Below are positions 27,915 through 30,145 of a stretch of 37,606 nt of DNA, piece after piece. Location: NCBI GenBank assembly GCA_036172155.1, contig JAVHSM010000043.1, forward strand, positions 1-37,606, in the 5' to 3' direction. Below the pieces are notes generated by a model that did not search any database, had not been told where the DNA came from, and saw only the letters and a program-made list of their open reading frames with translations. The DNA comes from Candidatus Magasanikiibacteriota bacterium. GTDB lineage: Bacteria > Patescibacteriota > Patescibacteriia > Magasanikbacterales > GWA2-37-8. Numbering within the stretch: position 1 is the first letter of the stretch; each line of letters opens with the position of its first letter. The position numbers and the translations under genes were made by a program.

Positions 27915-28895
27915 ATGTCCAAACCAGTAATAGTCTCTGGCATTCAACCCACCGGTAATCTGCATATTGGTAATTATTTGGGAGCGGTGAAAAATTTTGT
28001 GGAATTACAAAATTCTGGAAAATATGATTTGTATATTTTTATTGCCGATTTACATTCATTGTCTGGAAAAATTCCTGCCGCGCAATTGCGAGAACAGATA
28101 AAAATTACAGCTGCTGAATTACTGTCAGCCGGTATTGATCCAGACAAAACCACTTTTTTTGTTCAGTCGCATGTGTATGAACATACTGAGTTGGGATGGA
28201 TTTTTAATTGTGTTACCCCGATGGGCGAGTTGGAACGCATGACTCAATACAAAGATAAAATTTCTCAACAAATTTCAGCGACAGCCGGATTGTTTACTTA
28301 TCCAATTTTACAAGCGGCTGATATATTAATATATAAAGGTTCGTTGGTGCCGGTTGGACAAGACCAAATTCAGCATGTGGAATTGACGCGTGATATCGCG
28401 CGCTGGTTCAACAATAAATATGGAGAATTTTTTCCAGAGGCCAAACATCTGTTGACGACAGTACCAAAAGTGATGAGTTTGTTGGAGCCGGAAAAGAAAA
28501 TGAGTAAAAGTTTGGGGGCAGGGCATGTGATAGAAATGTGTGAAACATCACAGGAAATAGAAAATAAAATCAAAAAAGCGGTGACAGCGACTGTCGGTGG
28601 TGAGGCGGCGCCTGGGGTGGCCAATCTATTAGGTTTGTTGAAAGAATTTGGTGATAAAAATGTTTATAATCAATTTGTGAAGGCCGAAAAACAAGGAGAT
28701 ATACGCTATGGTGATCTGAAAAAAGCCCTTAGCGAAGCATTGGCTTCATATTTTGAGCAATTTAGAACAAAGCGAGCCAAACTGTTGAACGATACCAAAA
28801 AATTAGATAAAATTTTGGCCAAAGGTGCCAAAAAAGCACAAAAAGTAGCCAAGCCAAACATGGAAGAAATCCGAAAATTAGTGGGTATCAGATAA
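27915..28895 (+). CDS. trpS: Tryptophan--tRNA ligase
   Basis: SGIQPTG.LHIGNYLG, YPILQAADIL, VPVG.DQ.QH.E, KMSKS. Confidence 0.98.
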   Translation: MSKPVIVSGIQPTGNLHIGNYLGAVKNFVELQNSGKYDLYIFIADLHSLSGKIPAAQLREQIKITAAELLSAGIDPDKTTFFVQSHVYEHTELGWIFNCVTPMGELERMTQYKDKISQQISATAGLFTYPILQAADILIYKGSLVPVGQDQIQHVELTRDIARWFNNKYGEFFPEAKHLLTTVPKVMSLLEPEKKMSKSLGAGHVIEMCETSQEIENKIKKAVTATVGGEAAPGVANLLGLLKEFGDKNVYNQFVKAEKQGDIRYGDLKKALSEALASYFEQFRTKRAKLLNDTKKLDKILAKGAKKAQKVAKPNMEEIRKLVGIR

Positions 28896-28899
28896 ATAG

Positions 28900-28927
28900 T
28901 TGACAGAAATGTTGGCTGTGATAAAGT
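28900..28927 (+). promoter_or_regulatory. Sigma70-like promoter for the leader/tRNA-Asn unit
   Basis: TTGACA (28900-28905), 16 bp, extended -10 TGnTAAAGT (28919-28927); predicted +1 at or near the A of ATG 28934. Confidence 0.75.
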
Positions 28928-28933
28928 GTCTAT

Positions 28934-28981
28934 ATGAAAAATATTTTTTCCACAAATAATAATAACAATAATAATCCCTGA
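28934..28981 (+). CDS. Asn-rich leader peptide MKNIFSTNNNNNNNP (putative attenuator peptide)
   Basis: ATG AAA AAT ATT TTT TCC ACA AAT AAT AAT AAC AAT AAT AAT CCC TGA; 8 of 15 codons are Asn, 7 of them consecutive. Confidence 0.8.
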   Translation: MKNIFSTNNNNNNNP

Positions 28982-28983
28982 GA

Positions 28984-29035
28984 AGCCGGACGAATTTTTC
29001 GATTCTATCCCGGCTAATCAGTCGGGATTTTTTAT
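28984..29035 (+). terminator. Attenuator: overlapping antiterminator and terminator
   Basis: Terminator ATCCCGGCT-AATC-AGTCGGGAT-TTTTT (29007-29033). Alternative pairing AGCCGG (28984-28989) with CCGGCT (29010-29015), with inner GAAT/ATTC. Confidence 0.8.
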
Positions 29036-29107
29036 TCCTGGGTAGTTGAGCGGTACAACGCCACGCTGTTAACGTGGATTTCCTTGGTTCGAGTCCAAGC
29101 CCAGGAG
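29036..29107 (+). tRNA. tRNA-Asn(GTT)
   Basis: TCCTGGG/CCCAGGA acceptor, GTTG/CAAC D stem, CCACG-CTGTTAA-CGTGG, CTTGG-TTCGAGT-CCAAG, G73; CCA not encoded. Confidence 0.95.
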
Positions 29108-29112
29108 CAAAT

Positions 29113-29144
29113 ATAAAAACAGGCCTTATTCGGTCTATTTTTAT
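29113..29144 (+). terminator. Probable weak terminator after tRNA-Asn
   Basis: ATAAAAACAGGCC-TTATTC-GGTCTATTTTTAT. Confidence 0.55.
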
Positions 29145-29173
29145 GTGTTATAATATAGTCATAAATTATATCT

Positions 29174-30145
29174 ATGAGTTTTCGGTTTAAAATTATTTTA
29201 TTTATATTTTTATTGAGTCTGTTTTTATTTCCGGCAATTTCAAATGCCGCCGGTGTTGGGTTTGTGCCAAGTAGTCGTCTCTGGTTTTCCAGTTTGGTTT
29301 TTCCTCCGAAAGAATCGACCAATATCTATACGGTTATTATCAATAATAATTATTTTTCTTTGGATGCGATTGTTGGTTTTTATGTTGATGAAAAATTAAT
29401 TGATACGACTTATATTAGTAGTTTGAAAAAAGAGCAAGCAGTCCAAGCAAAAGGTAATTGGTGGCCGACTGAAGGTCAGCACTCGATTTCGGTAAAGTTT
29501 GTCAAGGCTACCGCCATCGACGCCAATGGTAATAAAACCGAATTGAATGTTCAAGAATTTAATACCGTGGATAGTACGGCAGTTCAAATAGGTGATAGTT
29601 TGCCAGTGAATAATTCTGCGAACGGTATGTCATCTACTGTTTTGTCTGTTTTAAATAACAACACTAATATTGGTTTGGCTAACACTCCGATGATAAATTT
29701 AAATATAGAAAAAAATGGAAATAATCTGGCAGTGGTAGCGGTCGGTCCGGCGGTCGCCACCAGTGAAAGCGAGCAACTGCAACAAACCATGGAACAAAAA
29801 ATACAAACAGCCATACAGCAAGGTCAGGATATCAGAAATAAAATTGTATCTGTCTTTAATACCGCTTCATCTGGAATTCATTCGGCTAGCGACGCCTATA
29901 CCAAAACTAAGTCAATGATAAATGATGCCAGCCAATATGTTGATAAAAATAAAATAACTCAGGCGTGGCCGGAGTTATTAACTAATAAGATTAAAATATG
30001 GTGGGCGTCGTTTTGGAGTGTGTCGGATTTCAGAAATAACCTTGCTTGGGTTTTTCGAATTGTTTTCTTCTTAGTGTTGTTTTATCTACTGATAAAGATG
30101 GTCAGAGTATTTTTTCACCGTCGCCGATATGATGAAGATGATTAG
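29174..30145 (+). CDS. Hypothetical exported protein with an Ig/CARDB-like N-terminal domain and C-terminal TM anchor
   Basis: Signal peptide, beta-rich region (V.FYVD...W.PTEG.HSI.V), helical region, TM followed by RRR; extended -10 TGnTATAAT at 29146-29154. Confidence 0.75.
   Translation: MSFRFKIILFIFLLSLFLFPAISNAAGVGFVPSSRLWFSSLVFPPKESTNIYTVIINNNYFSLDAIVGFYVDEKLIDTTYISSLKKEQAVQAKGNWWPTEGQHSISVKFVKATAIDANGNKTELNVQEFNTVDSTAVQIGDSLPVNNSANGMSSTVLSVLNNNTNIGLANTPMINLNIEKNGNNLAVVAVGPAVATSESEQLQQTMEQKIQTAIQQGQDIRNKIVSVFNTASSGIHSASDAYTKTKSMINDASQYVDKNKITQAWPELLTNKIKIWWASFWSVSDFRNNLAWVFRIVFFLVLFYLLIKMVRVFFHRRRYDEDD

Follow-up and report, generated by a model that had tools for sequence, protein, structure and literature searches.

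The window analysed here, a 37,606-nt stretch of contig JAVHSM010000043.1 from the assembly GCA_036172155.1 of a Candidatus Magasanikiibacteriota bacterium (order Magasanikbacterales, Patescibacteria), contains between positions 28,900 and 29,144 a short open reading frame (ORF) rich in asparagine (Asn) codons, a terminator hairpin, and a tRNA-Asn(GUU) gene, in this order and on the same strand (Table 1). A sequence-only reading of this region had proposed a poly-Asn leader-peptide attenuator whose output is the tRNA itself, and the promoter, the ORF, the AGCCGG/CCGGCT pairing, the terminator, and the tRNA-Asn(GUU) gene named in that reading were each recovered at the positions it had given. 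In the following, the AGCCGG element beside the stop codon is called segment 2, and the two arms of the terminator are called segments 3 and 4.

The leader promoter starts five bases past the end of trpS (28895), matches 10 of 12 consensus positions in addition to carrying the TG of an extended -10 box, and is the top promoter-like site between 28500 and 29600. The ATG of the leader ORF at 28934 lies 6 nt past the -10 hexamer, and transcription would be expected to start on or beside the A of this ATG. The ORF comprises 15 codons, eight of them for Asn and seven of these in tandem, and its TGA is located at 28979-28981. Segment 2 begins 3 nt past the stop codon and 8 nt past the last Asn codon; its complement, CCGGCT at 29010-29015, is part of the 5' arm of the terminator. 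The terminator stem (29007-29028) consists of nine pairs, five of them G-C, closed by a loop of 4, with a hairpin energy of -11.7 kcal/mol; once the 3' arm is omitted, six of eight 5'-arm bases pair with segment 2. The tRNA starts 2 nt beyond the T-tract. The whole leader folds at -22.8 kcal/mol (z = -2.97), and 2 of 200 shuffled sequences fold equally well.

Table 1. Positions of the leader, its predicted RNA elements, and adjacent genes in the window.
Feature	Position	Strand	Evidence or remark
trpS (tryptophan--tRNA ligase), upstream neighbour	27915..28895	+	ORF list; NCBIfam TIGR00233, 302 bits (cut-off 176.75)
-35 hexamer TTGACA of the leader promoter	28900..28905	+	promoter scan
Extended -10 box TGnTAAAGT	28919..28927	+	16-nt spacer, TG present
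Leader ORF MKNIFSTNNNNNNNP plus TGA, without Shine-Dalgarno sequence	28934..28981	+	reading frame; homologous ORFs elsewhere
Run of seven Asn codons (proposed sensing codons)	28955..28975	+	AAT x3, AAC, AAT x3
Segment 2, AGCCGG (predicted antiterminator 5' strand)	28984..28989	+	folds; geometry
Small inner hairpin GAAUU/GAUUC (inside the predicted antiterminator)	28992..29005	+	folds
Segment 3 (terminator 5' arm, common to the antiterminator)	29007..29015	+	folds
Segment 4 (terminator 3' arm)	29020..29028	+	folds
Terminator T-tract TTTTT	29029..29033	+	sequence
tRNA-Asn(GUU), type A (proposed regulated product)	29036..29108	+	ARAGORN; Rfam tRNA, 64.5 bits
Weak terminator-like hairpin and T-run 3' of the tRNA	29121..29142	+	5 pairs
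323-aa ORF, next after the tRNA	29174-30145	+	ORF list

An Rfam cmscan of positions 28000-30000 with E values up to 10 returned the tRNA as the only significant match, the rest being at chance level, with neither a leader family nor a T-box among them. Elsewhere in the window's genome, only one other short ORF with at least four tandem AAY (AAT or AAC) codons was found, and it is not accompanied by a terminator.

Conservation of the leader ORF and its alternative hairpins

When the tRNA-Asn gene was used as a DNA query against 240 genomes of its order, 128 of them matched, and the loci provided a survey set of 112 distinct tRNA-Asn genes, 108 of which have at least 150 nt of clean upstream sequence. 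When a leader is defined as an ATG-initiated ORF that lies within 260 nt upstream of the tRNA, spans no more than 35 codons, and includes four or more Asn codons, it is present in 85 of the 108 upstream regions of these type-A genes; control windows taken at these loci contain one in 4 of 656 cases, and chance is excluded by this difference. The leader loci are mostly not adjacent to trpS. AAY runs of three or more codons were likewise found in 85 of the 108 regions when ORFs were not preselected, and an in-frame ATG lies no more than 15 codons away, with no stop between, in 85 of 85 cases compared with 2 of 85 for the +1 frame. The ORF, the Asn run, and the frame are conserved across genera and families, and the run varies in whole codons only. 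The conservation in relatives on which the earlier proposal depended is thus borne out, and frame-breaking repeat lengths do not occur. The remaining 23 type-A genes have no leader and stand behind a plain promoter or directly after trpS (two genomes of the same genus).

The leader peptides have a median of 16 residues and a median of six Asn (range 4-18, the frame unbroken throughout), and Asn makes up 39% of their residues compared with 5.6% of the genome's codons. The non-Asn residues are not conserved. The single AAC that interrupts the AAT run in the window had been read as synonymous variation, and this holds more widely: the two codons replace each other in the proportion typical of the genome (421 AAT to 127 AAC, an AAT share of 0.77 compared with 0.75 genome-wide). 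One leader (L079, genome G023) contains 18 consecutive Asn codons, mostly AAT, upstream of its tRNA-Asn, and looks like a microsatellite-type expansion in which the frame, the stop position, and the terminator are kept. At the other extreme of base composition, a record titled only "bacterium" (L172) holds a G+C-rich version of the element, MFKEAGNNNNSRSGP, followed by a GC-rich terminator, which indicates that the design is not limited to AT-rich genomes.

Of the 87 leaders, 77 have a TTGAC motif no more than 60 nt ahead of their ATG, and in 58 of the 87 the motif stands at 35-39 nt, a distance that puts the ATG 6-10 nt past the -10 box. A Shine-Dalgarno-like word precedes the ATG in only 2 of 87. 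Because of this short distance and the lack of a Shine-Dalgarno sequence, the leader mRNA is probably leaderless, that is, translated from an AUG at or near its 5' end.

Behind the ORF, 85 of the 87 leaders have a terminator hairpin with a T-tract, and the T-tract begins 6-13 nt ahead of the tRNA in most loci. To assess the antiterminator, we folded the sequence that runs from the final Asn codon up to the loop of the terminator and so excludes its 3' arm, and we used dinucleotide shuffles as controls. Under these conditions, 83% of the 5'-arm bases pair upstream compared with 46% in the shuffles, and z is below -2 in 85% of the leaders; the median energies are -14.9 kcal/mol for the antiterminator and -10.9 kcal/mol for the terminator. 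At the position of the window's inner hairpin, the relatives have a U-rich/A-rich inner helix. The structure counts use 81 of the 87 leaders, exact duplicates and six rows having been dropped: one contains a run of N (L029), in three the script mis-called the terminator (L075, L094, and L095), and in two it found none (L025, which by eye has a hairpin followed by three T only, and L090, in which a hairpin is followed by a broken T-run).

The sequences of these helices vary widely. Among the 81 leaders there are 66 distinct triplets of segments 2, 3, and 4, with segment 2 mirroring segment 4 and with segment-3 arms as different as CUCUCC, CCCGCC, CCCUUCC, CGUCCC, and CUCCGAC. Duplexes between segment 2 and its cognate arm average -7.72 kcal/mol, compared with -6.2 ± 0.2 kcal/mol when partners are permuted (minimum -6.85 in 2000 permutations). 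Since MAFFT mis-registers the arms, we relied on per-sequence folds, partner permutation, and a covariance model; RNAalifold, run on MAFFT alignments with such mis-registered arms, returned no structure for the 81 leaders and four terminator pairs only for a set of 17. The covariance model, built from 17 leaders with the hand-set antiterminator as its structure, gave 51 matches in 100 loci, five of them antisense, and none in 11 control loci that have no leader. In its alignment, which is fitted to the structure and includes the five antisense rows, so that counts favour the structure, 86.5% of cells pair compared with 75.1% after shuffling (0 of 500), all 11 antiterminator pairs show changes on both sides, and the covariation score is 0.365 compared with 0.185 when shuffled and at most 0.157 with the partners slid. 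The 3' arm is out of register in this alignment, so the terminator pairs were not counted. The alternative pairing that had been noticed in the window is thus kept by covariation, the segment beside the stop codon co-varying with both terminator arms.

We also measured where segment 2 lies relative to the ORF. Its start is located, at the median, 10 nt (interquartile range 8-12) downstream of the last Asn codon and 2 nt downstream of the first base of the stop codon. This layout matches a situation in which a terminating ribosome would mask segment 2 and a ribosome stalled on the Asn codons would leave it free. In a position model of the window leader, with a footprint reaching 12 nt beyond the first A-site base, a 6-bp helix between segments 2 and 3 is possible before segment 4 exists when the A-site is placed on the Asn codons at 28955-28970, whereas no such pairing is possible, and the terminator is complete with 8 of 8 pairs, when it is placed on the Pro codon or the stop codon. 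The model thus reproduces the ribosome-position logic of the sequence-only reading, in that the terminator forms with the ribosome at the stop and stalling on Asn frees AGCCGG. With the ribosome on the earliest Asn codons, a nested hairpin can form as well, to which we return below.

One tRNA-Asn type and the range of its leader

The window's own genome encodes tRNA-Asn(GUU) twice, in genes with mismatches at 29 of 73 positions: type A, which carries the leader in the window, and type B, on contig C55, which has a plain TTGACA/TATACT promoter. Type B is matched in 156 of the 240 genomes of the order, and a true leader was found at none of 31 type-B loci, the single script match there being the end of a protein gene. 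By hand tally, at least 32 of 87 leader-bearing genomes also have a strong or intron-split type-B match. A search of five genomes with an anticodon/T-arm pattern showed that three contain the leader type together with a second tRNA-Asn, that one (G136) has a single match, and that in one (G221) the leader locus itself gives two matches, separated by 54 nt.

Genes other than tRNA-Asn were compared as well. A scan of regions upstream of tRNA genes, of the kind that the sequence-only reading had suggested for Patescibacteria, found a cognate-codon leader at 0 of 63 other tRNAs, taken from the window's genome and from the sequences flanking the loci, and on inspection none of the 38 further tRNA genes of the window's genome showed one; cognate leaders at other tRNAs were thus ruled out in this set. 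Control of asnS by the same leader was also ruled out, as an AAY run is present in 0 of 5 asnS upstream regions from relatives. On the sequences compared here, the leader is tied exclusively to one tRNA-Asn type.

Neighbouring genes show no comparable constancy. In the window, trpS has no terminator of its own ahead of the leader, so trpS transcripts would enter the attenuator, and the neighbourhood from trpS to tRNA-Asn is kept within the genus whether or not a leader is present. Downstream of the tRNA, the neighbour is not conserved among 21 loci, which comprise 16 singletons and one cluster of five on the opposite strand. Behind the tRNA, a clear terminator is present at no more than 38 of 86 leader loci. 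It is stronger at these than in the window, where the terminator-like hairpin that had been noted after the tRNA exists but is weak. The own -10 that had been assigned to the next gene was found as well, in the form of a TATAAT-like sequence preceding the 323-aa ORF. That ORF encodes a hydrophobic N-terminus and a hydrophobic C-terminal stretch and has no NCBIfam match. The only conserved downstream gene is tRNA-Asn, in contrast to the biosynthesis, transport, or synthetase genes that usually form the output of attenuators. There is also no room for another promoter between the terminator and the tRNA, which speaks against a start downstream of the hairpin, named by the earlier reading as a possible objection to itself.

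Several observations concern the architecture of the two tRNA-Asn types. In at least 10 genomes, an insertion of some 220-605 nt interrupts the type-B gene in its anticodon, after base 34. Rfam identifies the insertion as a group I intron at 56.8 bits, above the gathering threshold, in G095:C1:521380-522056 (L269), and at 48.1 bits, just below it, in G093:C22:91058-91408 (L270); the other split genes are in genomes G094, G023, G074, G071, G072, G101, G011, and G089. At some type-A loci (L048, L049, L053, L075, L080, L082, L111, L119, L122, L130, and G221:C2:225236-225316, L271), a partial tRNA-Asn-like sequence covering the first 12-35 nt and an extra hairpin lie between the terminator and the tRNA, with G221 carrying its second anticodon/T-arm copy 54 nt after the first. 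Rfam recognizes the complete tRNA only at these loci, and the fragments could be remnants of a duplication or of integration at the tRNA gene.

The genes for charging tRNA-Asn were also searched. In the window's genome, which is 88% complete, asnS was not above the cut-off and gatB was not found, and gatA and a short AspRS are present. In five near-complete relatives, asnS and gatB are above the cut-off in 5 of 5, and asnB in 1 of 5. A scenario in which AsnRS is absent and tRNA-Asn serves as the scaffold for Asn biosynthesis by the GatCAB route was therefore rejected, given asnS in all five relatives. The AspRS (G000:C66:10758-12134; L131 919-2319, minus strand) has only 466 aa and matches the bacterial aspS profile in two pieces (11-292 and 421-584), which indicates that the usual insertion domain is missing, and the gatA match (G000:C36:8539-9924, 569.6 bits) holds one in-frame TAA. 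Two genomes of the same genus (G003 and G001) encode a full AsnRS (450-461 bits) and, in addition, have another asnS-like gene of 456-462 aa that scores about 228 bits; in each of the five relatives, a paralogue of about 350-360 aa aligns with the asnS catalytic core only (AsnA-like).

The wider range of the element was estimated with a strict pattern that requires four AAY codons in a row 80-110 nt ahead of the T-arm and anticodon loop of a tRNA-Asn; it recovers only 40 of 135 known loci, and its negatives are accordingly weak. Applied to one genome per species across 185,579 species, it returned 88 stretches, 86 of them with a tRNA-Asn by ARAGORN, and 78 of these 86 with an ATG leader ORF. 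The matching records are mostly titled Candidatus Magasanikbacteria or Magasanikiibacteriota and "Patescibacteria group," and terminator-bearing true leaders are also present under the titles Dojkabacteria, Saccharibacteria, Komeilibacteria, and Uhrbacteria. Dozens of matches (among loci L137-L212) titled "uncultured Gammaproteobacteria bacterium," and one titled Udaeobacter, are Patescibacteria-type tRNA-Asn leaders. Because several of the leader peptides under the Gammaproteobacteria titles are identical to those of the order itself, we take these titles as default labels, and both they and the Udaeobacter title are probably default or wrong. The matches titled Eubacteriales and Nitrosomonas, together with two of the five titled Saccharibacteria, are without a leader, and one titled "archaeon" has an Asn-containing ORF with no visible terminator; these look like chance matches. 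In an even sample of 401 genomes of the phylum, the same pattern matched five: the window's own, 3 of 10 others of the order, 0 of 14 of the class, and 1 of about 375 others. Its occurrence is thus centred on one order and sporadic elsewhere in Patescibacteria, and the element was not seen outside this group in the strict-pattern scans, which miss most known leaders.

The proposed attenuator and competing explanations

Overall, the leader has every feature of his/trp-type ribosome-mediated attenuators that can be read from sequence, and the his/trp/thr-type geometry ascribed to it holds for the ORF, the terminator, the co-varying alternative pairing, and the spacing between stop codon and segment 2. 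We consider it very likely that the element is a selected cis-regulatory attenuator, and there is a good probability that it is a ribosome-mediated one of the his/trp type that would raise tRNA-Asn synthesis when Asn-tRNA(Asn) is scarce. On the same reading, it would form a negative-feedback loop on the cognate tRNA. Transcription would start at or beside the A of the ATG, and a ribosome loading on the 5'-terminal AUG would trail the polymerase. With charged tRNA-Asn plentiful, this ribosome would reach the stop codon and cover segment 2, upon which the hairpin of segments 3 and 4 and the U-tract would end the transcript 2 nt before the tRNA. With charged tRNA-Asn scarce, it would stall on the Asn run with its front edge just short of segment 2, which would then be free to pair with segment 3 as soon as the latter is made; no terminator would form, the tRNA would be transcribed, and RNase P would release it from the read-through transcript. 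If the leader were not translated at all, the RNA would likewise fold into the terminating form. Type-A tRNA-Asn would thus be the regulated species, and type B, with its plain promoter, would supply a basal level. We infer that the ORF is translated and that transcription and translation are coupled, and likewise the direction and size of the response.

Several points weigh against this account. Extra tRNA helps little if asparagine itself is limiting. When the ribosome is placed on the first three or four Asn codons of the window leader, the lowest-energy fold is a nested hairpin in which the codons after the Asn run pair with segment 4 around the helix of segments 2 and 3, and this hairpin, which still ends at the U-tract, might terminate transcription. 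The window antiterminator is only 6 bp long and little different in energy from the terminator (-12.4 compared with -11.7 kcal/mol, z = -2.1), and the covariance-model counts carry the bias toward the structure mentioned above. A 1:2 pause hairpin is barely above the control, with 62% of segment-2 bases paired compared with 49%, and the classical form of this hairpin is not clearly supported. The leader is dispensable, since 23 of 108 type-A genes lack one, and all compared genomes are assemblies from uncultured organisms.

One competing explanation is a coincidence, in which an AAT microsatellite in an AT-rich spacer and the terminator of trpS happen to lie ahead of a constitutive tRNA gene. 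The genome is indeed 61% A+T, the hairpin is the first terminator after trpS, and terminators stand right before tRNAs elsewhere in this genome, for example at tRNA-Gly(CCC) on contig C11; set against this, the same layout recurs at 85 of 108 loci, most of them away from trpS, over a background of 4 in 656, the frame is kept in 85 of 85, and segment 2 co-varies with the terminator, so we attach next to no credence to it. Another possibility is that the promoter, the ORF, and the terminator, which do make up a complete small transcription unit, constitute an independent gene for an Asn-rich micropeptide or a trans-acting leader RNA, the tRNA being made by unregulated leak-through. Two papers on the Sinorhizobium trp leader describe attenuator RNAs and leader peptides that act in trans, a precedent for trans action of this kind (PMC6614838, PMC7298713). 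What is conserved here, however, is the Asn content, the length, and the stop position and not the peptide sequence; a small gene on its own has no use for an antiterminator that co-varies; and the unit is always fused to one tRNA-Asn type, mostly with the T-tract 6-13 nt before it. We regard such a gene as very improbable.

The two other alternatives accept an attenuator and change its input or its output. It might sense translation capacity, leaderless initiation, or the decoding quality of tRNA-Asn (modification at position 34/37) instead of Asn-tRNA supply: the leaderless-type start would tie read-through to 70S initiation, the terminator in our model forms whenever no ribosome stalls, and 77% of the sensing codons are AAU, which the GUU anticodon reads by wobble. 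The enrichment is nevertheless specific to Asn (39% compared with 5.6%), the output is specifically tRNA-Asn, and the AAT share of 0.77, compared with 0.75 in the genome, gives no sign of selection for the wobble codon, which leaves this alternative unlikely. That the attenuator mainly controls genes beyond the tRNA, with the tRNA as a passenger, would be in keeping with the clear terminators present after only 38 of 86 tRNAs and the weak hairpin in the window, but the downstream neighbours at 21 loci are not conserved, the tRNA is the only constant partner, and the next ORF in the window has its own -10-like TATAAT; we judge this reading highly improbable. The preferred interpretation, a feedback attenuator responding to scarce Asn-tRNA(Asn), leads to a more general proposal that we consider fairly probable, namely that these bacteria gauge the decoding speed of one codon family to set the transcription of a reserve tRNA by way of a leaderless-attenuator homeostat. 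A further step, that type A serves as a back-up switched on when the housekeeping type B fails, through poor splicing of its group I intron or cleavage by an anticodon nuclease, seems much less likely to us.

Relation to known systems and implications

Leader-peptide attenuators of the his, trp, leu, thr, ilv, and pheA genes are known in Proteobacteria, and hisL has seven tandem His codons. The Asn leader resembles them in its short ORF with tandem sensed codons, in the stop codon beside the antiterminator strand, in the mutually exclusive antiterminator and terminator hairpins with a U-tract, and in the predicted translation of stalling into read-through. It differs in that its putative output is the cognate tRNA gene and not biosynthetic enzymes, in that it starts at the predicted 5' end without a Shine-Dalgarno sequence, and in that it has no clear 1:2 pause hairpin, no Rfam leader match, and a home in Patescibacteria. 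In E. coli, the pheST operon, with its pheM leader, has a leader-peptide attenuator ahead of an aminoacyl-tRNA synthetase operon, and there, as proposed here, attenuation acts on the translation apparatus with feedback through the charged cognate tRNA; the output of pheST is a synthetase, however, whereas here it would be the tRNA, and an AAY run upstream of asnS is absent from all five relatives compared. T-box riboswitches are also cis-acting terminator/antiterminator switches that report the charging of one tRNA. They bind uncharged tRNA directly, need no translation, and control synthetase, biosynthesis, and transport genes, whereas the Asn element has an ORF that is predicted to be translated, and no T-box match in the Rfam scan. 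At the promoter level, tRNA and rRNA genes are under stringent and growth-rate control, a global regulation of initiation via ppGpp and the initiating NTP; it too fits tRNA synthesis to translational demand, and the Asn element would differ from it in being specific to one tRNA and in acting after initiation.

To our knowledge, leader-peptide attenuation is a textbook mechanism whose known outputs are all proteins, namely biosynthetic enzymes, synthetases, and transporters, and individual bacterial tRNA genes are usually viewed as controlled only globally, at the promoter. In searches of the openly accessible full-text literature, we found no description of a leader-peptide attenuator ahead of a tRNA gene, and the main text of a broad attenuator survey (PMC2965389) contains none of the terms "tRNA gene," "tRNA operon," "upstream of tRNA," and "asparagine." What appears to be new is therefore a known mechanism, leader-peptide attenuation, with a tRNA as its predicted output, a probably leaderless start, and no clear pause hairpin.

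The element also adds a conserved small ORF and an RNA element that current annotation libraries have missed, and as a putative compact natural sensor of Asn-tRNA supply it may be usable in reporter design. If the proposed mechanism is true, the window would hold the first known example of a tRNA gene controlled by ribosome-mediated attenuation, and a single tRNA species would be tuned by feedback from its own decoding performance. It would also provide indirect evidence for transcription-translation coupling and leaderless initiation in Patescibacteria, which are hard to study, and it would account for the retention of two diverged tRNA-Asn genes in their tiny genomes.

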